A stretch of 10,454 nt of DNA from a virus (UHGV-1716704), one strand, 5' to 3'; counted from the first letter of the stretch, positions 1 through 10,454 are shown. Translations and numbers: made by a program. Notes: generated by a model from the sequence alone, not told the origin.

Positions 1-50
1 GCCTGTGGAGTTCAGCCGATCTGACTTATGTCATTACCTATGAAATGTGA
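1..50 (+). CDS. U: 3' end of tail terminator protein gene (gpU-like); partial, start lies upstream of the window
   Basis: Reading frame open from the window edge (codons from position 3) to TGA at 48-50, giving ...[15 protein letters not shown]. It ends 7 nt before the V start and overlaps the V ribosome-binding site. Position matches U in the lambda order U-V-G-T-H. Too short to identify from sequence alone. Confidence 0.5.
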
Positions 51-57
51 GGACGCT

Positions 58-798
58 ATGCCTGTACCAAATCCTACAATGCCGGTGAAAGGTGCCGGGA
101 CCACCCTGTGGGTTTATAAGGGGAGCGGTGACCCTTATGCGAATCCGCTTTCAGACGTTGACTGGTCGCGTCTGGCAAAAGTTAAAGACCTGACGCCCGG
201 CGAACTGACCGCTGAGTCCTATGACGACAGCTATCTCGATGATGAAGATGCGGACTGGACTGCGACCGGGCAGGGGCAGAAATCTGCCGGAGATACCAGC
301 TTCACGCTGGCGTGGATGCCCGGAGAGCAGGGGCAGCAGGCGCTGCTGGCGTGGTTTAATGAAGGCGATACCCGTGCCTATAAAATCCGCTTCCCGAACG
401 GCACGGTCGATGTGTTCCGTGGCTGGGTCAGCAGTATCGGTAAGGCGGTGACGGCGAAGGAAGTGATCACCCGCACGGTGAAAGTCACCAACGTGGGACG
501 TCCGTCGATGGCAGAAGATCGCAGCACGGTGACGGCGACAACCGGCATGACGGTGACACCCGCCAGTGCTTCCGTAGTGAAAGGGCAGAGCACCACGCTG
601 ACCGTGGCATTCCAGCCGGATGGCGCAACCGACAAGAGCTTCCGTGCGGTGTCTGCGGATAAAACAAAAGCCACCGTGTCGGTCAGTGGTATGACCATCA
701 CCGTGAATGGCGTTGCTGCAGGCAAGGTCAACATTCCGGTTGTATCCGGTAATGGTGAGTTTGCTGCGGTTGCAGAAATCACCGTCACCGCCAGTTAA
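58..798 (+). CDS. V: Major tail tube protein gpV, 246 aa, with C-terminal Ig-like (Big_2-type) domain
   Basis: ATG at 58 preceded by GAGGA at 49-53. Product [24 protein letters not shown]... is recognised as lambda-type gpV and has the same 246-aa length. The C-terminal part is rich in T/V/S/A, as in the Ig-like domain. The track ORF beginning at 28 is the same frame extended upstream; it would overlap the U stop and has no RBS, so 58 is preferred. Confidence 0.95.
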
Positions 799-813
799 TC
801 CGGAGAGTCAGCG

Positions 814-1236
814 ATGTTCCTGAAAACCGAATCATTTGAACATAACGGTGTGACCGTCACGCTTTCTGAACTGTCAGCCCTGCAGCGTATTGAGCATCTC
901 GCCCTGATGAAACGGCAGGCAGAACAGGCGGAGTCAGACAGCAACCGGAAGTTTACTGTGGAAGACGCCATCAGAACCGGCGCGTTTCTGGTGGCGATGT
1001 CCCTGTGGCATAACCATCCGCAGAAGACAAAGCAGCCTTCCATGAATGAAGCCGTTAAACAGATTGAGCAGGAAGTGCTTACCACCTGGCCCACAGAGGC
1101 AATTTCTCATGCTGAAAACGTGGTGTACCGGCTGTCTGGTATGTATGAGTTTGTGGTGAATAATGCCCCTGAACAGGCAGAGGACGCCGGGCCCGCAGAG
1201 CCTGTTTCTGCGGGAAAGTGTTCGACGGTGAGCTGA
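814..1236 (+). CDS. G: Tail assembly chaperone gpG, 140 aa
   Basis: ATG at 814 with GGAGAG at 802-807. Product MFLKTESFEHNGVTVTLSELSALQRIEHLALMKRQ... is recognised as lambda gpG. Stop TGA at 1234-1236. The slippery heptamer sits near its 3' end. Confidence 0.93.
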   Translation: MFLKTESFEHNGVTVTLSELSALQRIEHLALMKRQAEQAESDSNRKFTVEDAIRTGAFLVAMSLWHNHPQKTKQPSMNEAVKQIEQEVLTTWPTEAISHAENVVYRLSGMYEFVVNNAPEQAEDAGPAEPVSAGKCSTVS

Positions 1237-1652
1237 GTTTTGCCCTGAAACTGGCGCGTGAGATGGGGCGACCCGACTGGCGCGCCATGCTTGCCGGGAT
1301 GTCATCCACGGAGTATGCCGACTGGCACCGCTTTTACAGTACCCATTATTTTCATGATGTTCTGCTGGATATGCACTTTTCCGGGCTGACGTACACCGTG
1401 CTCAGCCTGTTTTTCAGCGATCCGGATATGCATCCGCTGGATTTCAGTCTGCTGAACCGGCGCGAGGCTGACGAAGAGCCTGAAGATGATGTGCTGATGC
1501 AGAAAGCGGCAGGGCTTGCCGGAGGTGTTCGCTTTGGCCCGGACGGGAATGAAGTTATCCCTACTTCCCCGGATGTGGCGGACATGACGGAGGATGACGC
1601 AATGCTGATGACAGTATCAGAAGGGATCGCAGGAGGAGTCCGGTATGGCTGA
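814..1652 (+). CDS. T: Tail assembly chaperone gpGT, a fusion made by programmed -1 ribosomal frameshift; G frame 814-1218, then T frame from 1218 to stop at 1650-1652; predicted 279 aa
   Basis: Heptamer G GGA AAG at 1212-1218 lies in the G frame, 5 codons before the G stop. The -1 frame is open from 1218 to 1652 and encodes VFDGELSFALKLAREMGRPDWRAMLAGMSSTEYADWHRFY..., recognised as the gpT moiety. This is the conserved G/GT frameshift architecture of long-tailed phages. The T frame has no start or RBS of its own. Confidence 0.88.
1212..1218 (+). promoter_or_regulatory. Slippery heptamer GGGAAAG, the -1 programmed frameshift site for G to GT
   Basis: Read directly: gggaaag at 1212-1218, with GGA and AAG as G-frame codons at 1213-1218. 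Shifting to GGG AAA places the next codon, GTG at 1218, in the T frame. Confidence 0.88.
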
Positions 1653-4206
1653 ACCGGTAGGCGATCTGGTCGTTGATTTGAGTCTGGATGCGGCCAGATT
1701 TGACGAGCAGATGGCCAGAGTCAGGCGTCATTTTTCCGGTACGGAAAGTGATGCGAAAAAAACAGCGGCAGTCGTTGAACAGTCGCTGAGCCGACAGGCG
1801 CTGGCTGCACAGAAAGCGGGGATTTCCGTCGGGCAGTATAAAGCTGCCATGCGTATGCTGCCTGCGCAGTTCACTGACGTGGCCACGCAGCTTGCAGGCG
1901 GGCAAAGTCCGTGGCTGATCCTGCTGCAACAGGGTGGTCAGGTTAAGGACTCCTTCGGCGGGATGATCCCCATGTTCAGGGGGCTTGCCGGTGCGATCAC
2001 CCTGCCGATGGTGGGGGCCACCTCGCTGGCGGTGGCGACCGGTGCGCTGGCGTATGCCTGGTATCAGGGCAACTCAACCCTGTCCGATTTCAACAAAACG
2101 CTGGTCCTTTCCGGTCATCAGTCGGGTCTGACGGCAGATCGTATGCTGGTCCTGTCCAGAGCCGGGCAGGCGGCAGGGCTGACGTTTAACCAGACCAGCG
2201 AGTCACTCAGCGCACTGGTTAAGGCGGGGGTAAGCGGTGAGGCTCAGATTGCGTCCATCAGCCAGAGTGTGGCGCGTTTCTCCTCTGCATCCGGCGTGGA
2301 GGTGGACAAGGTCGCTGAAGCCTTCGGGAAGCTGACCACAGACCCGACGTCGGGGCTGACGGCGATGGCACGCCAGTTCCATAACGTGACGGCGGAGCAG
2401 ATTGCGTATGTTGCTCAGTTGCAGCGTTCCGGCGATGAAGCCGGGGCATTGCAGGCGGCGAACGAGGCCGCAACGAAAGGGTTTGATGACCAGACCCGCC
2501 GCCTGAAAGAGAACATGGGCACGCTGGAGACCTGGGCAGACAGGACTGCGCGGGCATTCAAATCCATGTGGGATGCGGTGCTGGATATTGGTCGTCCTGA
2601 TACCGCGCAGGAGATGCTGATTAAGGCAGAGGCTGCGTTTAAGAAAGCAGACGACATCTGGAATCTGCGCAAGGATGATTATTTTGTTAACGATGAAGCG
2701 CGGGCGCGTTACTGGGATGATCGTGAAAAGGCCCGTCTTGCGCTTGAAGCCGCCCGAAAGAAGGCTGAGCAGCAGACTCAACAGGACAAAAATGCGCAGC
2801 AGCAGAGCGATACCGAAGCGTCACGGCTGAAATATACCGAAGAGGCGCAGAAGGCTTACGAACGGCTGCAGACGCCGCTGGAGAAATATACCGCCCGTCA
2901 GGAAGAACTGAACAAGGCACTGAAAGACGGGAAAATCCTGCAGGCGGATTACAACACGCTGATGGCGGCGGCGAAAAAGGATTATGAAGCGACGCTGAAA
3001 AAGCCGAAACAGTCCGGCGTGAAAGTGTCTGCGGGCGATCGTCAGGAAGACAGTGCTCATGCTGCCCTGCTGACGCTTCAGGCAGAACTCCGGACGCTGG
3101 AGAAGCATGCCGGAGCGAATGAGAAAATCAGCCAGCAGCGCCGGGATTTGTGGAAGGCTGAAAATCAGTTCGCGGTACTGGAGGAGGCGGCACAACGTCG
3201 CCAGCTATCCGCACAGGAGAAATCCCTGCTGGCGCATAAAGATGAGACGCTGGAGTACAAACGCCAGCTGGCTGCACTTGGCGACAAGGTTACGTATCAG
3301 GAGCGCCTGAACGCGCTGGCGCAGCAGGCGGATAAATTCGCACAGCAGCAACGGGCAAAACGGGCCGCCATTGATGCGAAAAACCGGGGGCTGACTGACC
3401 GGCAGGCAGCGCGGGAAGCCACAGAACAGCGCCTGAAGGAACAGTATGGCGATAATCCTCTGGCGCTGAATAACGTCATGTCAGAGCAGAAAAAGACCTG
3501 GGCGGCTGAAGACCAGCTTCGCGGGAGCTGGATGGCAGGCCTGAAGTCCGGCTGGAGTGAGTGGGAAGAGAGCGCCACGGACAGTATGTCGCAGGTAAAA
3601 AGTGCAGCCACGCAGACCTTTGATGGTATTGCGCAGAATATGGCGGCGATGCTGACCGGCAGTGAGCAGAACTGGCGCAGCTTCACCCGTTCCGTGCTGT
3701 CCATGATGACAGAAATTCTGCTTAAGCAGGCAATGGTGGGGATTGTCGGGAGTATCGGCAGCGCCATTGGCGGGGCTGTTGGTGGCGGCGCATCCGCGTC
3801 AGGCGGTACAGCCATTCAGGCCGCTGCGGCGAAATTCCATTTTGCAACCGGAGGATTTACGGGAACCGGCGGCAAATATGAGCCAGCGGGGATTGTTCAC
3901 CGTGGTGAATTTGTCTTCACGAAGGAGGCAACCAGCCGGATTGGCGTGGGAAATCTCTACCGGCTGATGCGCGGCTATGCCACCGGCGGTTATGTCGGTG
4001 GCACCGGAAGTCCGGCGCAAATGCGGCGTTCAGAGGGTATCAGGTTTGAGCAGAACAACAACGTGGTGATTCAGAACGACGGTACGAATGGTCTGCCAGG
4101 TCCACAGATGATGAAGGCAGTGTATGACATGGCCCGCAAGGGTGCCCGTGATGAAATTCAGGCACAGATGCGCGATGGTGGTCTGTTCTCCGGAGGTGGA
4201 CGATGA
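1645..4206 (+). CDS. H: Tail tape measure protein gpH, 853 aa
   Basis: ATG at 1645 with AGGAGGA at 1631-1637; overlaps the T-frame stop by 8 nt. The 853-aa product matches lambda gpH in length and is recognised from its sequence. It has a long central stretch rich in A/E/K/Q/R/L (coiled-coil type, about 2600-3500) and a Gly/Ala-rich hydrophobic segment near the C terminus (about 3700-3830). It sits directly after G/GT, as tape measure genes do. Confidence 0.95.
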   Translation: MAEPVGDLVVDLSLDAARFDEQMARVRRHFSGTESDAKKTAAVVEQSLSRQALAAQKAGISVGQYKAAMRMLPAQFTDVATQLAGGQSPWLILLQQGGQVKDSFGGMIPMFRGLAGAITLPMVGATSLAVATGALAYAWYQGNSTLSDFNKTLVLSGHQSGLTADRMLVLSRAGQAAGLTFNQTSESLSALVKAGVSGEAQIASISQSVARFSSASGVEVDKVAEAFGKLTTDPTSGLTAMARQFHNVTAEQIAYVAQLQRSGDEAGALQAANEAATKGFDDQTRRLKENMGTLETWADRTARAFKSMWDAVLDIGRPDTAQEMLIKAEAAFKKADDIWNLRKDDYFVNDEARARYWDDREKARLALEAARKKAEQQTQQDKNAQQQSDTEASRLKYTEEAQKAYERLQTPLEKYTARQEELNKALKDGKILQADYNTLMAAAKKDYEATLKKPKQSGVKVSAGDRQEDSAHAALLTLQAELRTLEKHAGANEKISQQRRDLWKAENQFAVLEEAAQRRQLSAQEKSLLAHKDETLEYKRQLAALGDKVTYQERLNALAQQADKFAQQQRAKRAAIDAKNRGLTDRQAAREATEQRLKEQYGDNPLALNNVMSEQKKTWAAEDQLRGSWMAGLKSGWSEWEESATDSMSQVKSAATQTFDGIAQNMAAMLTGSEQNWRSFTRSVLSMMTEILLKQAMVGIVGSIGSAIGGAVGGGASASGGTAIQAAAAKFHFATGGFTGTGGKYEPAGIVHRGEFVFTKEATSRIGVGNLYRLMRGYATGGYVGGTGSPAQMRRSEGIRFEQNNNVVIQNDGTNGLPGPQMMKAVYDMARKGARDEIQAQMRDGGLFSGGGR

Positions 4207-4532
4207 AGACCTTCCGCTGGAAAGTGAAACCCGGTATGGATGTGGCTTCGGCCCCTTCTGTAAGAAAGGTGCGCTTTGGTGATGGCTATTCCCAGCGAGC
4301 GCCTGCCGGGCTGAATGCCGACCTGAAAACGTACAGCGTGACGCTTTCTGTTCCCCGTTGGGAGGCCACGGCGCTGGAGTCGTTTCTGGCTGAGCACGGG
4401 GGCTGGAAAGCCTTTCTGTGGACGCCGCCTTATGAGTGGCGGCAGATAAAGGTGACCTGCGCAAAATGGTCGTCGCGGGTCAGTATGCTGCGTGTTGAGT
4501 TCAGCGCAGAGTTTGAACAGGTGGTGAACTGA
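4203..4532 (+). CDS. M: Minor tail (tail tip) protein gpM, 109 aa
   Basis: ATG at 4203 overlaps the H stop as ATGA at 4203-4206; GGAGGTGGA lies upstream at 4191-4199. Product MKTFRWKVKPGMDVASAPSVRKVRFGDGYSQRAP... is recognised as lambda gpM, with the same 109-aa length. Confidence 0.93.
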   Translation: MKTFRWKVKPGMDVASAPSVRKVRFGDGYSQRAPAGLNADLKTYSVTLSVPRWEATALESFLAEHGGWKAFLWTPPYEWRQIKVTCAKWSSRVSMLRVEFSAEFEQVVN

Positions 4533-5230
4533 TGCAGGATATCCGGCAGGAAACACTGAATGAATGCACCCGTGCGGAGCAGTCGGCCAGCGTGGTGCTC
4601 TGGGAAATCGACCTGACAGAGGTCGGTGGAGAACGTTATTTTTTCTGTAATGAGCAGAACGAAAAAGGTGAGCCGGTCACCTGGCAGGGGCGACAGTATC
4701 AGCCGTATCCCATTCAGGGGAGTGGTTTTGAACTGAATGGCAAAGGCACCAGTACGCGCCCCACACTGACGGTTTCTAACCTGTACGGTATGGTCACCGG
4801 GATGGCGGAAGATCTGCAGAGTCTGGTCGGCGGAACGGTGGTCCGGCGTAAGGTTTACGCCCGTTTTCTGGATGCGGTGAACTTCGTCAACGGAAACAGT
4901 GACGCCGATCCGGAGCAGGAGGTGATCAGCCGCTGGCGCATCGAGCAGTGCAGCGAACTGAGCGCGGTGAGTGCCTCTTTTGTACTGTCCACGCCGACGG
5001 AAACGGATGGCGCTGTTTTTCCGGGACGTATCATGCTGGCCAACACCTGCACCTGGACCTATCGCGGTGACGAGTGCGGTTATAGCGGTCCGGCTGTCGC
5101 GGATGAATATGACCAGCCAACGTCCGATATCACGAAGGATAAATGCAGCAAATGCCTGAGCGGTTGTAAGTTCCGCAATAACGTCGGCAACTTTGGCGGC
5201 TTCCTTTCCATTAACAAACTTTCGCAGTAA
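4532..5230 (+). CDS. L: Minor tail (tail tip) protein gpL, 232 aa, with C-terminal Cys cluster
   Basis: ATG at 4532 overlaps the M stop as TGATG. Product MQDIRQETLNECTRAEQSASVVLWEIDLTEVGGERYFFCNEQ... is recognised as lambda gpL, same 232-aa length. C-terminal cysteines fall in CTWTYRGDECGY and DKCSKCLSGCKF (nt about 5049-5171). Confidence 0.93.
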   Translation: MQDIRQETLNECTRAEQSASVVLWEIDLTEVGGERYFFCNEQNEKGEPVTWQGRQYQPYPIQGSGFELNGKGTSTRPTLTVSNLYGMVTGMAEDLQSLVGGTVVRRKVYARFLDAVNFVNGNSDADPEQEVISRWRIEQCSELSAVSASFVLSTPTETDGAVFPGRIMLANTCTWTYRGDECGYSGPAVADEYDQPTSDITKDKCSKCLSGCKFRNNVGNFGGFLSINKLSQ

Positions 5231-5235
5231 ATCCC

Positions 5236-5979
5236 ATGACACAGACAGAATCAGCGATTCTGGCGCACGCCCGGCGATGTGCGCCAGCGGAGTCGTGCGG
5301 CTTCGTGGTAAGCACGCCGGAGGGGGAAAGATATTTCCCCTGCGTGAATATCTCCGGTGAGCCGGAGGCGTATTTCCGTATGTCGCCGGAAGACTGGCTG
5401 CAGGCAGAAATGCAGGGTGAGATTGTGGCGCTGGTCCACAGCCACCCCGGTGGTCTGCCCTGGCTGAGTGAGGCCGACCGGCGGCTGCAGGTGCAGAGTG
5501 ATTTGCCGTGGTGGCTGGTCTGCCGGGGGACGATTCATAAGTTCCGCTGTGTGCCGCATCTCACCGGGCGGCGCTTTGAGCACGGTGTGACGGACTGTTA
5601 CACACTGTTCCGGGATGCTTATCATCTGGCGGGGATTGAGATGCCGGACTTTTATCGTGAGGATGACTGGTGGCGTCACGGCCAGAATCTCTATCTGGAT
5701 AATCTGGAGGCGACGGGGCTGTATCAGGTGCCGTTGTCAGCGGCACAGCCGGGCGATGTGCTGCTGTGCTGTTTTGGTTCATCAGTGCCGAATCACGCCG
5801 CAATTTACTGCGGCGACGGCGAGCTGCTGCACCATATTCCTGAACAACTGAGCAAACGAGAGAGGTACACCGACAAATGGCAGCGACGCACACACTCCCT
5901 CTGGCGTCACCGGGCATGGCACGCATCTGCCTTTACGGGGATTTACAACGATTTGGCCGCCGCATCGACCTTCGTGTGA
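5236..5979 (+). CDS. K: Tail tip assembly protein gpK, 247 aa as the full ORF: N-terminal JAB/MPN (JAMM) metallopeptidase domain and C-terminal NlpC/P60 domain. The in-frame Met at 5380 would give the 199-aa form.
   Basis: ORF begins 5 nt after the L stop. JAMM signature HSHPGGLPWLSEAD (H-x-H-x7-S-x2-D) is present; a candidate upstream Glu lies in PAESCGFV, within the N-terminal 48 codons. NlpC/P60-type Cys appears in GVTDCYTLFRDAYHLAG and His in NHAAIYCGDGELLHH. No strong SD precedes 5236, so translational coupling to L is assumed and the start is uncertain. Confidence 0.85.
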   Translation: MTQTESAILAHARRCAPAESCGFVVSTPEGERYFPCVNISGEPEAYFRMSPEDWLQAEMQGEIVALVHSHPGGLPWLSEADRRLQVQSDLPWWLVCRGTIHKFRCVPHLTGRRFEHGVTDCYTLFRDAYHLAGIEMPDFYREDDWWRHGQNLYLDNLEATGLYQVPLSAAQPGDVLLCCFGSSVPNHAAIYCGDGELLHHIPEQLSKRERYTDKWQRRTHSLWRHRAWHASAFTGIYNDLAAASTFV

Positions 5980-6548
5980 AAACGGGGGCTGAAGCCATCC
6001 GGGCACTGGCCACACAGCTCCCGGCGTTTCGTCAGAAACTGAGCGACGGCTGGTATCAGGTACGGATTGCCGGGCGGGACGTCAGCACGTCCGGGTTAAC
6101 GGCGCAGTTACATGAGACTCTGCCTGATGGCGCTGTGATTCATATTGTTCCCAGAGTCGCCGGGGCCAAGTCAGGTGGCGTATTCCAGATTGTCCTGGGG
6201 GCTGCCGCCATTGCCGGATCATTCTTTACCGCCGGAGCCACCCTTGCAGCATGGGGGGCAGCCATTGGGACCGGTGGTATGACCGGCATCCTGTTTTCTC
6301 TCGGTGCCAGTATGGTGCTCGGTGGTGTGGCGCAGATGCTGGCACCGAAAGCCAGAACTCCCCGTACACAGACAACGGATAACGGTAAGCAGAACACCTA
6401 TTTCTCCTCACTGGATAACATGGTTGCCCAGGGCAATGTTCTGCCTGTTCTGTACGGGGAAATGCGCGTGGGGTCTCGCGTGGTTTCTCAGGAGATCAGC
6501 ACGGCAGACGAAGGGGACGGTGGTCAGGTTGTGGTGATTGGTCGCTGA
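5877..6548 (+). CDS. I: Tail tip assembly protein gpI, 223 aa: N-terminal ubiquitin-like domain ending near a Gly-Gly, then a Gly/Ala-rich hydrophobic C-terminal region
   Basis: ATG at 5877 with GAGAGAGG at 5858-5865. Overlaps the 3' end of K by 103 nt in a different frame. Product MAATHTLPLASPGMARICLYGDLQRFGRRIDLRVKTGAEAIRALATQLP... is recognised as lambda gpI, same 223-aa length. Gly100-Gly101 are encoded at 6174-6179; the segment VFQIVLGAAAIAGSFFTAGATLAAWGAAIGTGGMTGILFSLGASMVLGGVAQ follows. Confidence 0.9.
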   Translation: MAATHTLPLASPGMARICLYGDLQRFGRRIDLRVKTGAEAIRALATQLPAFRQKLSDGWYQVRIAGRDVSTSGLTAQLHETLPDGAVIHIVPRVAGAKSGGVFQIVLGAAAIAGSFFTAGATLAAWGAAIGTGGMTGILFSLGASMVLGGVAQMLAPKARTPRTQTTDNGKQNTYFSSLDNMVAQGNVLPVLYGEMRVGSRVVSQEISTADEGDGGQVVVIGR

Positions 6549-6566
6549 TGCAAAATGTTTTATGTG

Positions 6567-6589
6567 AAACCGCCTGCGGGCGGTTTTGT
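6567..6589 (+). other. Small GC-rich hairpin in the I-J intergenic spacer (aaaccgcc-tgcg-ggcggttt, then tttg)
   Basis: Read directly: an inverted repeat with an 8-bp stem and 4-nt loop, followed by a short T-rich run, 20 nt after the I stop and about 25 nt before the J start. It could be an attenuating terminator or an RNA stability or processing element. Function is not established from sequence. Confidence 0.3.
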
Positions 6590-6608
6590 CATTTATGGAG
6601 CGTGAGGA

Positions 6609-9600
6609 ATGGGTAAAGGCAGCAGTAAGGGGCATACCCCGCGCGAAGCGAAGGACAACCTGAAGTCCACGCAGCTGCTGAGTGTGATCGATGCCATCAG
6701 CGAAGGGCCGGTTGAAGGTCCGGTGGATGGATTAAAAAGCGTGCTGCTGAACAGTACGCCGGTGCTGGACAGTGAGGGGAATACCAATATATCCGGCGTC
6801 ACGGTGGTGTTCCGGGCAGGTGAGCAGGAGCAGTCACCGCCGGAGGGATTTGAATCCTCCGGCTCCGAGACGGTGCTGGGTACGGAAGTGAAATATGACA
6901 CGCCGATCACCCGCACCATTACGTCTGCAAACATCGACCGTCTGCGCTTTACCTTCGGCGTGCAGGCACTGGTGGAAACCACCTCAAAGGGGGACCGGAA
7001 TCCGTCGGAAGTCCGCCTGCTGGTTCAGATCCAGCGTAATGGTGGCTGGGTGACGGAAAAAGACATCACCATTAAGGGCAAAACCACCTCGCAGTATCTG
7101 GCCTCGGTGGTGGTGGGTAACCTGCCGCCGCGCCCGTTCAATATACGGATGCGCAGGATGACGCCGGACAGCACCACAGACCAGCTGCAGAACAAAACGC
7201 TCTGGTCGTCATACACCGAAATCATCGATGTGAAACAGTGCTACCCGAACACGGCACTGGTCGGCGTGCAGGTGGACTCGGAACAGTTCGGCAGCCAGCA
7301 GGTGAGCCGTAATTATCATCTTCGCGGGCGCATTCTGCAGGTGCCGTCGAACTATAACCCGCAGACGCGGCAATACAGCGGTATCTGGGACGGAACGTTT
7401 AAGCCAGCATACAGCAACAACATGGCCTGGTGTCTGTGGGATATGCTGACCCATCCGCGCTACGGCATGGGGAAGCGTCTCGGTGCGGCGGATGTGGACA
7501 AATGGGCGCTGTATGTCATCGGCCAGAATTGCGACCAGTCGGTGCCGGATGGCTTTGGTGGCACGGAGCCGCGCATCACCTGTAATGCCTACCTGACCAC
7601 ACAGCGCAAGGCGTGGGATGTGCTCAGTGATTTCTGCTCGGCGATGCGCTGTATGCCGGTATGGAACGGGCAGACGCTGACGTTCGTGCAGGACCGACCA
7701 TCAGATAAGGTGTGGACCTATAACCGCAGTAATGTGGTGATGCCGGATGATGGCGCGCCGTTCCGCTACAGCTTCAGCGCCCTGAAGGACCGCCATAATG
7801 CCGTTGAGGTGAACTGGATTGACCCGGATAACGGCTGGGAGACGGCGACAGAGCTTGTGGAGGACACGCAGGCCATTGCCCGTTACGGTCGTAACGTCAC
7901 GAAGATGGATGCCTTTGGCTGTACCAGTCGGGGGCAGGCACACCGCGCCGGGCTGTGGCTGATTAAAACGGAGCTGCTGGAAACGCAGACCGTGGACTTC
8001 AGCGTGGGCGCAGAAGGGCTTCGTCATGTACCGGGCGATGTCATTGAAATCTGCGATGATGACTATGCGGGTATCAGTACCGGCGGGCGCGTGCTGGCGG
8101 TGAACAGCCAGGCGCGGACACTGACGCTCGACCGTGAAATCATGCTGCCATCCTCCGCCACCACGCTGATAAGCCTGGTTGACGGAAGTGGCAATCCGGT
8201 CAGCGTGGAGGTTCAGTCCGTCACCGACGGCGTGAAGGTAAAAGTGAGCCGTGTTCCTGACGGTGTTGCTGAATACAGCGTATGGGGGCTGAAGCTGCCG
8301 ACGCTGCGCCAGCGACTGTTCCGCTGCGTGAGTATCCGTGAGAACGACGACGGCACGTATGCCATCACCGCCGTGCAGCATGTACCGGAAAAAGAAGCCA
8401 TCGTGGATAACGGGGCGCACTTTGACGGCGACCAGAGCGGCACGGTGAATGGTGTCACGCCGCCAGCGGTGCAGCACCTGACCGCAGAAGTCACTGCAGA
8501 CAGCGGGGAATATCAGGTGCTGGCGCGATGGGACACACCGAAGGTGGTGAAGGGCGTGAGCTTCCTGCTTCGCCTGACCGTGGCAGCGGATGACGGCAGT
8601 GAGCGGCTGGTCAGCACGGCCCGGACGACGGAAACCACATACCGCTTCACGCAACTGGCGCTGGGAAACTACAGGCTGACAGTCCGGGCGGCAAATGCCT
8701 GGGGGCAGCAGGGCGATCCGGCATCGGTATCGTTCCGTATTGCCGCACCGGCAGCGCCGTCGCGGATTGAGCTGACGCCGGGCTATTTTCAGATAACCGC
8801 CACGCCCCATCTTGCCGTTTATGATCCGACGGTACAGTTTGAGTTCTGGTTCTCGGAAAAGCGGATTGCGGATATCAGGCAGGTTGAAACCACAGCCCGC
8901 TATCTTGGCACGGCGCTGTACTGGATAGCCGCCAGTATCAATATCAAACCGGGCCATGATTATTATTTTTACATCCGCAGTGTGAACACCGTTGGCAAAT
9001 CGGCATTTGTGGAGGCTGTTGGCCAGCCGAGTGATGATGCATCCGGCTATCTGGATTTTTTCAAAGGCGAGATAGGGAAAACCCATCTGGCTCAGGAGCT
9101 GTGGACGCAGATTGATAACGGTCAGCTTGCGCCTGACCTGGCTGAAATCAGGACGTCCATTACGGATGTCAGCAATGAAATCACGCAGACCGTCAATAAG
9201 AAACTGGAAGACCAGAGTGCAGCGATCCAGCAGATACAGAAGGTTCAGGTTGATACAAATAATAACCTGAACAGCATGTGGGCTGTGAAGCTGCAGCAGA
9301 TGCAGGACGGACGCCTTTATATCGCGGGTATTGGTGCCGGTATTGAGAACACCCCTGACGGCATGCAGAGTCAGGTGCTGCTGGCGGCGGACAGGATTGC
9401 GATGGTTAATCCTGCGAATGGCAACACAAAGCCGATGTTTGTTGGTCAGGGCGATCAGATATTCATGAATGAAGTGTTCCTGAAACGCCTGACGGCTCCC
9501 ACCATTACCAGCGGCGGTAATCCTCCGGCATTTTCCCTGACACCGGACGGAAAACTGACCGCTAAAAATGCAGATATCAGTGGCAGTGTGAATGCGAACG

Positions 9601-10106
9601 CCGGGACGCTCAACAATGTCACGGTAAATGAAAACTGTACGATTAAGGGCATGCTGGAGGCGACTCAGGTCAGAGGTGACTTCGTTAAAGCTGTATCCAA
9701 ATCATTCCCGAAACAGGCTGGTACGTGGGGTAATACGGAAACACCAAACGGGACGGTTACAGTCACCATCAGCGATGATCATAACTTTGACCGTCAAATC
9801 ATTATTCCGCCCATTATCTTTAACGGAATAGCGTATAGCGATCCGGGAAGTGGTAATAACCCGGGAGGTACAAGATACACGGGTTATGGTTTTGAAGTTC
9901 GCAAAAACGGCGTATTAATCGCATCCAGAGAAACTAAAGGGGCCATTCCCGGTAGTTACAGTGCAGTTATTGATATGCCGAGTGGCAGGGGAAGCGTCAC
10001 TCTGGAGTTTAAGATTTTCCAGAAAGGCAATCAGGGGGCAGGCAATATCACCGACTGTACGGTGATTGTGACCAAAAAAGCCGCTTCCGGCATCAGTATT
10101 CGTTGA
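6609..10106 (+). CDS. J: Central tail fibre / host specificity protein gpJ, 1165 aa
   Basis: ATG at 6609 with GGAG at 6597-6600. N terminus [34 protein letters not shown]... and most of the body are recognised as lambda-type J. Central fibronectin-III-like region (about 8380-9000) and a C-terminal receptor-binding region. Length differs from the 1132 aa I recall for lambda J. Stop TGA at 10104-10106. Confidence 0.95.
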
Positions 10107-10127
10107 AATATTTATAACCCCAATAAA

Positions 10128-10152
10128 GGGCGTCAGGAATGACGCCTTTTTT
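10128..10152 (+). terminator. Rho-independent terminator downstream of J
   Basis: Read directly: stem ggcgtca (10129-10135), loop ggaa, stem tgacgcc (10140-10146), then TTTTTT at 10147-10152. An A-run (aaa at 10125-10127) precedes the stem, so it could act in both directions. It lies 22 nt after the J stop. Confidence 0.75.
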
Positions 10153-10176
10153 ATTGCAGAAAAGCGAGAGGTAATT

Positions 10177-10454
10177 ATGCGTAAAGTTTGTGCAGCAATT
10201 TTATCCGCAGCCATTTGTCTGGCCGTATCCGGTGCGCCTGCATGGGCGTCTGAACATCAGTCCACGCTGAGCGCGGGGTATCTTCATGCCCGTACGAACG
10301 CTCCCGGCAGCGATAATCTGAACGGGATTAACGTGAAATACCGTTATGAGTTTACGGACACGCTGGGGCTGATTACGTCATTCAGTTATGCCAACGCTGA
10401 AGATGAGCAAAAAACGCATTACAGCGATACCCGCTGGCATGAAGATTCCGTGCG
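10177..10454 (+). CDS. lom: Lom (Ail/Lom/OmpX family) outer-membrane beta-barrel protein, 5' part only; 3' end lies beyond the window
   Basis: ATG at 10177 with GAGAGG at 10166-10171. Product MRKVCAAILSAAICLAVSGAPAWA/SEHQSTLSAGYLHARTNAPGSDNLNGINVKYRYEFTDTLGLITSFSYANAEDEQ... has a typical Sec signal peptide (A-W-A cleavage motif) followed by alternating amphipathic beta-strand sequence. It sits immediately downstream of J, as lom does in lambda. Confidence 0.85.
   Translation, partial: MRKVCAAILSAAICLAVSGAPAWASEHQSTLSAGYLHARTNAPGSDNLNGINVKYRYEFTDTLGLITSFSYANAEDEQKTHYSDTRWHEDSV

Follow-up and report, generated by a model that had tools for sequence, protein, structure and literature searches.

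Mosaic structure of the distal part of gene J in a lambda-like phage: a phage-21-type shaft, a phage-434-type receptor-binding domain and OmpC as predicted receptor

Gene J and its segments

The stretch of DNA analysed here, 10,454 nucleotides (nt) from the virus UHGV-1716704 and hereafter called the window, carries tail genes of a lambda-like phage in the order V, G, H, M, L, K, I, J and the start of lom, which agrees with the annotation of lambda. From 4 to 9105 the window is collinear with lambda at 97.2% identity. The subject of this report is gene J, which encodes the tip attachment protein (central tail fibre), and in particular the distal third of J, where the nearest relative changes from one segment to the next. 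The features of J, with positions counted from the first nucleotide of the window, are as follows.

6609 to 10106, plus strand: gene J, tip attachment protein or central tail fibre, an intact open reading frame (ORF) of 1165 amino acids (aa) according to the ORF list and the translation
6609 to 9023, plus strand: conserved J body, common to lambda, 434 and 21, with hub domains and two FNIII/Ig domains (aa 1-805)
9024 to 9430, plus strand: cassette of the phage-21 type that spans aa 806 to about 941, with the alpha-helical shaft and the upper beta-prism fibre, assigned by identity to 21
9430 to 9610, plus strand: patch conserved across all J types, aa about 941-1001, with nt identities of 77-97% to each of lambda, 434 and 21
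9609 to 10106, plus strand: phage-434-type receptor-binding domain, aa 1001-1165, containing the Pfam domain Ig_GpJ_C (1029-1164), with a guanine-plus-cytosine (GC) content of 0.477 and a GC content at third codon positions (GC3) of 0.47

A preliminary description of the window had given J a length of 1165 aa against 1132 aa in lambda, and both values were confirmed, from the ORF at 6609-10106 and from the lambda record (NC_001416). Over its full length the protein is 82% identical to lambda J. All six Pfam families of J scored above their curated cut-offs and in the order expected for a lambda-family J: FNIII-A_GpJ (86-207), Phage-tail_3 (330-498), Ig_J (610-714), Ig_J_second (716-818), Phage_Tail_Tip (872-1000) and Ig_GpJ_C (1029-1164). 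The last 360 aa matched the solved lambda J structures 8iyk and 8xcj with E values of 1e-94 to 1e-95; the best structure match, 9wca (A8 gpJ), had an E value of 6e-103 and thus surpassed lambda J. Domain architecture and gene context are the same as those of lambda J (structures 8IYK, 8XCG and 8XCJ). As judged from its sequence, J in the window is an intact, ordinary lambda-family tail-tip protein.

The segments were delimited by comparing J with its counterparts in lambda, 434, 21 and phi458, both as protein and, in blocks of 60 nt, as nucleotide sequence. The first 805 residues aligned to all four without a gap, at 97-99% aa identity and about 96% nt identity. From aa 806 to 900, J was 98% identical to 21 and 100% identical to phi458, again without gaps, versus 46% to lambda and 48% to 434 with 28 gap positions; in 60-nt blocks the shaft cassette showed 92-100% identity to 21 versus 13-65% to lambda and 434. 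Compared with lambda and 434, 28 extra residues (four heptads) are present at about aa 836-866 (nt about 9114-9206). The shaft is the long allele of the phage-21 type, with the same sequence and the same 28-residue excess over lambda and 434. The shaft and prism of phage 21 J are equal in length to those found here (98% identity at aa 806-900 and 89% at aa 901-1015), whereas the J of phage 434, with 1137 aa, has a short, lambda-type shaft. In lambda, the alpha-helical shaft comprises residues 809-861 and is followed by the top of the beta-prism fibre (PMC11101478); it is 28 residues shorter than the shaft in the window, and a conserved patch of 36 residues is common to the two proteins. The heptad-register score of the shaft was weak, with a hydrophobic fraction at positions a and d of 0.48 here and 0.53 in lambda, and we claim no canonical coiled coil.

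Beyond the conserved patch the affinity changes again. Residues 1016-1165 were 93% identical to 434 with zero gaps (94.0% by tblastn to OL657226), versus 40% to lambda with 17 gap positions and 42% to 21 with 11 gap positions, which places the domain outside the lambda-type (LamB-binding) class. The earlier proposal that the 3′ part of J is mosaic, with a receptor-binding domain that is not that of lambda, is thereby borne out. The same proposal had coupled the greater length of J to a mosaic receptor-binding region. J is indeed longer, but 28 of the 33 additional residues lie in the separate, 21-type alpha-helical shaft cassette, and the receptor-binding domain contributes a net gain of five. 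By these alignments, J contains two exchanged cassettes, not one.

Base composition along J

Over aa 1-805 (6609-9023) the GC content was 0.591 and GC3 0.714, versus 0.498 and 0.543 over aa 806-1165 (9024-10106). No upstream window of 1083 nt in the 10.4-kb stretch fell below a GC content of 0.543 (mean 0.581, standard deviation 0.014). The lowest values, 0.45-0.47, were found at 9600-10200. A two-segment fit placed a single break within the conserved body.

8758 to 8957, no strand: GC change point, given as its support interval of 2 log-likelihood units, with the best position at 8784 (J nt 2175, aa 725)

With the break at 8784, GC fell from 0.601 on the left side to 0.498 on the right, and the gain in log-likelihood of 17.8 was equalled in none of 300 codon shuffles. 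The greater AT-richness of the 3′ part of J that the preliminary description had reported is therefore confirmed, as is its culmination at about 9700-9990 (the 78-mer quoted there lies at 9731-9808). The AT-rich part had been said to begin at 9050; the drop is real, but it starts about 270 nt earlier.

Lambda, 434, 21 and phi458 have the change point at aa 725 (gene nt 2175) of their J genes too, although the one in lambda is weaker (a fall from 0.593 to 0.532). From there it is about 240 nt downstream to aa 806 (nt 9024), where J in the window begins to differ from lambda, and the sequence around the change point is 90-100% identical to lambda, 434 and 21. Since the change point is shared and lies upstream of the junction, the drop in GC is ancestral in J genes and is not a scar of exchange here. 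GC3 also falls along J, from 0.71 to 0.47-0.61, which indicates that the compositional shift is not solely an amino-acid effect. The low GC content of the 3′ third of J is thus mostly common to all J genes. The drop is deeper in this J because the 434-type and 21-type cassettes are lower in GC than those of lambda; for the receptor-binding domain, GC was 0.477 here, 0.479 in 434 and 0.472 in 21, versus 0.556 in lambda. The cassette-specific part of the GC signal is the extra depth in the receptor-binding domain only. AT-richness is therefore a poor sign of this particular mosaic, since lambda shares the change point. A foreign base composition that marks a recent import was considered as the main explanation of the low GC and was rejected, since lambda J has the same change point. 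A GC shift within J alone should not be taken for a recombination scar. Neither near identity to lambda J, nor an alignment free of indels, nor a uniform GC content, the three results named in the preliminary description as contrary to its reading, was observed, and overall its interpretation is partly supported.

Two further observations concern the region of the GC break. In the laboratory hybrid lambda h434 imm21 (Feiss 2022; PMC9119081), the crossover lies at J nt about 2100-2250, near the GC change point at J nt 2175; this shared position may be a coincidence or a favoured junction at the border between FNIII-1 and FNIII-2. In addition, an antisense ORF of 461 aa lies on the minus strand at 7701-9086, wholly within the GC-rich part of J, and ends near the fall in GC; it is probably a by-product of base composition and not a gene.

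Cassette exchange and the predicted receptor

Among known phages, the two variable segments of J are found in different pairings. A long shaft is combined with a 434-type domain in the J of the window and in Ayreon, ev099, Kati, phi458, cdtI, mEp332, PhiR34_1 and phiSTEC1575-Stx2k, while a short shaft accompanies the 434-type domain in 434, mEp460, 2B8 and Evi. Phage 21 has a long shaft and a 21-type domain, and lambda a short shaft and a lambda-type domain. All four combinations of shaft and receptor-binding domain therefore exist, which shows that the cassettes assort independently. Some matches in E. coli genomes are partial and start at window position 9428 (query 405) or stop at 9637-9649 (query 614-626), and a locus of Escherichia sp. 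E1V33 matches 8025-9105 and 9432-10155 with the stretch between unmatched; these breaks locate the junctions at the edges of the conserved patch. The segment 9430-9610 is likely to be a zone of homologous crossover between the two cassettes. The junctions are as expected from homologous or homeologous recombination between lambdoid prophages, from which we infer the crossover mechanism. In a published comparison, the phylogenies of the J body and of residues 960-1132 were discordant, and it was concluded that the specificity region of J circulates as an independent segment (Maddamsetti et al. 2018; PMC6646904).

We propose that the distal third of J was built by homologous recombination from two circulating cassettes. 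Residues 1-805 form the body shared by lambda, 434 and 21. The shaft and the upper prism, from aa 806 to about 941, are the phage-21 allele, 28 residues longer than that of lambda, and the C-terminal Ig-like receptor-binding domain (aa 1001-1165) is the phage-434 allele; the two cassettes are joined through about 180 nt common to all J genes. On infection, the trimeric receptor-binding domain would insert its four bottom loops into an outer-membrane porin, which in 434 is OmpC, adsorption to OmpC would be irreversible, and refolding of the shaft and opening of the tip would follow in the way reported for lambda.

Two explanations that dispense with exchange of functional cassettes were weighed against this model. 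Amino-acid or functional constraint on a vertically inherited gene, as the only cause of the AT-rich 3′ third, is favoured by a GC break that recurs at codon 725 in lambda, 434, 21 and phi458, within sequence conserved to 97%; the compositional shift is for that reason partly unlinked to the mosaic junctions. Vertical inheritance under constraint nevertheless accords poorly with the drop at third codon positions, with a nearest relative that changes along the gene from all comparators to 21 and then to 434, with the occurrence of all four cassette combinations among phages and with the conflict between published trees of the J body and of the specificity region (PMC6646904), and we regard it as very improbable. 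Hardly more credible is the idea that J belongs to a decaying prophage and that its divergent 3′ end arose by drift in a non-functional gene. Most close matches lie in E. coli chromosomes as prophages, as this idea would have it, but the ORF of 1165 codons is intact with all domains present, the same allele occurs in plaque-forming phages from K-12 and other strains (Ayreon, phi458, mEp332 and PhiR34_1), and the whole tail module from V to J, also intact, has 97% identity with lambda. The account that best explains the data overall, and the one we hold to be probable, is a lambda-like body joined to a 21-type shaft and a 434-type receptor-binding domain, with OmpC as the predicted receptor.

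The class of the receptor-binding domain is sharply bounded. When the last 150 aa were compared by tblastn with all phage records, 74 matched at 90% identity or more and 168 at less than 60%, with none between; this bimodal distribution shows that the domain belongs to a discrete class, of which 434 is the type member. The J of the hybrid lambda h434 imm21 is identical to lambda up to nt about 2150 and to 434 thereafter, and the J proteins of lambda and 434 differ at only about ten residues before aa 985 and at most positions after it. Together, these patterns place the host-range determinant of 434 in the segment homologous to aa 1001-1165 of the J in the window. OmpC is the receptor of phage 434 and of lambda carrying the 434 J (PMC3509688; PMC11101478), while the native receptor of phage 21 is LamB (PMC11336670). 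C-termini of J from natural E. coli prophages, when grafted onto lambda J, redirected it to OmpC (PMC11338833). Relative to lambda, whose domain has indels at all four sites, the domain here differs in length at lambda positions 1011/1012, 1051/1052, 1078/1079 and 1109-1114, and the lengths at all four are those of 434; these sites are the indel hot spots that were proposed to be receptor-contact loops (Maddamsetti et al. 2018; PMC6646904). Since 434 uses OmpC and the domain here is of the 434 type, OmpC is the predicted receptor, and the phage would probably use OmpC and not LamB.

Several points weigh against this prediction or limit it. From aa 1001 onward, 12 substitutions separate the domain from that of 434 (V1006I, E1008Q, S1032A, Q1036K, A1037V, N1047D, S1077D, D1078N, R1127G, I1136V, Q1138H and G1143W), about eight of them in or beside the putative contact loops. 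In phage 21 a single mutation in J suffices to add OmpC to LamB (PMC11336670), and the engineered J chimeras A8 and 1A2 differ in the OmpC alleles that they accept (PMC11338833). Because small changes in J alter the use of porins or of OmpC alleles, the receptor or the range of alleles could differ from that of 434. The literature yielded no receptor or adsorption data for any phage with precisely this combination of shaft and domain (Ayreon, phi458, mEp332, the PhiR collection and ev099). A single-sequence monomer model of aa 799-1165 from AlphaFold2 had a mean predicted local distance difference test (pLDDT) score of 42.8, too low for a fold search or for loop geometry, and only weakly suggested that aa 843-877, about 35 residues, form a helix; homology to the solved J structures already settles the fold. 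A domain that is 434-like and yet binds another porin (LamB, OmpF or a different one) or a subset of OmpC alleles, owing to its loop substitutions, would be compatible with the substitutions near the loops and with the shifts reported for phage 21 and for A8 and 1A2. We nevertheless consider it unlikely, given 93-94% identity to 434 with identical loop lengths, a class that stands sharply apart from all other receptor-binding-domain classes, and an identity of just 40-42% to the lambda-type and 21-type domains, which use LamB. Within the preferred reading, in which OmpC is the receptor, the loop substitutions relative to 434 might shift the OmpC alleles used.

Two observations concern the engineered chimeras. 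The receptor-binding domain of the OmpC-targeting A8 gpJ (PDB 9wca/9wcb, 'A8 gpJ 713'; PMC11338833) looked phage-21-like and not 434-like, as compared by eye only; were this right, receptor-binding domains of at least two different classes would reach OmpC. The sequence of the OmpC-targeting chimera 1A2, sought for comparison with the 434 type, was not in the supplements of PMC11338833.

As for the shaft, that of lambda flips by about 180 degrees upon receptor binding, when part of it refolds into beta-sheet (PMC11101478), so an extension of four heptads could matter for reach or for triggering. Peaks of indels in J outside the specificity region have been reported, with the statement that their consequence was not known to the authors (Maddamsetti et al. 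2018; PMC6646904); we infer that the shaft indel seen here is among these peaks, for which their text gives no positions. That the extension of 28 residues is more than neutral variation between cassettes seems doubtful to us. If it is, a shaft about 4 nm longer could alter how far the fibre reaches through O-antigen or capsule, or the energetics of triggering, and the long shaft could be selected in particular pairings with classes of receptor-binding domain.

Distribution and neighbouring features

The arrangement of J is not peculiar to this phage. Of 5426 complete E. coli genomes, 3670 matched the whole window at a coverage of at least 80%, with the best match in E. coli PCP06021 (98.8%), and 1164 had the two-cassette 3′ end (at least 80% of 9024-10106). 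The two-cassette J was also found in at least 25 phage records. The same three-part J, with point differences only, is carried by Ayreon, ev099, Kati, phi458, cdtI, mEp332, PhiR34_1, PhiR68_2, phiSTEC1575-Stx2k and many E. coli prophages; these relatives are 95-96% identical in nucleotides over J and lom, and the J of phi458 has 98-100% aa identity to both cassettes. This J is among the commonest J alleles in E. coli. Apart from one mis-binned contig, E. coli and Escherichia sp. E1V33 were the only species-representative genomes with the 434-type domain in a search by strict, exact peptide patterns, so that absence elsewhere is weak evidence. A contig of 1350 bp labelled 'MAG: Collinsella sp.' (JAGZNZ010000056.1) was 96.7% identical in nucleotides over 8915-10155 and 100% identical in the amino acids of the receptor-binding domain; it almost certainly comes from an E. 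coli prophage and was mis-binned.

The arrangement is ordinary and already known in kind, and the modularity of the J specificity region, the use of OmpC by 434-type J and the engineering of such chimeras have been published. The value of the result is practical and not conceptual: the use of OmpC rather than LamB becomes predictable for this prophage and for the roughly one fifth of complete E. coli genomes with the same allele, which bears on the prediction of host range, on superinfection and on phage-based delivery vectors.

Downstream of J, two further features were recorded.

10129 to 10152, plus strand: GC-rich hairpin GGCGTCAGGAATGACGCC followed by TTTTTT, terminator-like, between J and lom, read directly from the sequence
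10177 to 10454, plus strand: 5′ part of lom, an outer-membrane protein gene that runs off the end of the window, 92 aa with 85% identity to 434 Lom

A terminator is annotated in the stretch between J and lom in the records of Ayreon and mEp460, and the hairpin scan of the window reported the stem of 10129-10152 on the minus strand only. Phage 434 has a similar lom downstream of J, whereas phage 21 has no lom after J; lom travels with the 434-type end of J. The nucleotide identity of lom to 434 was 89-98% up to 10342 and 72-77% beyond it. Identity to both 434 and phi458 falls from about 90-98% to 72-77% after 10343, which suggests a further mosaic junction inside lom.

Three features of the left arm were noted as well. 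The slippery heptamer GGGAAAG for the programmed G-T frameshift is kept as in lambda, at 1212-1218 at the end of G. The block 4001-4100, in the 3′ end of the tape measure gene H just before M, was 62% identical to lambda and the next block (4101-4200) 88%, in a left arm that is otherwise about 97% identical; 4001-4100 is a small mosaic patch at the C-terminus of H. The K ORF (5236-5979) encodes 247 aa, which matches the annotation of 434, while K in the lambda reference is annotated with 199 aa from a downstream start, its first 45 or so codons being out of frame relative to the sequence of the window.

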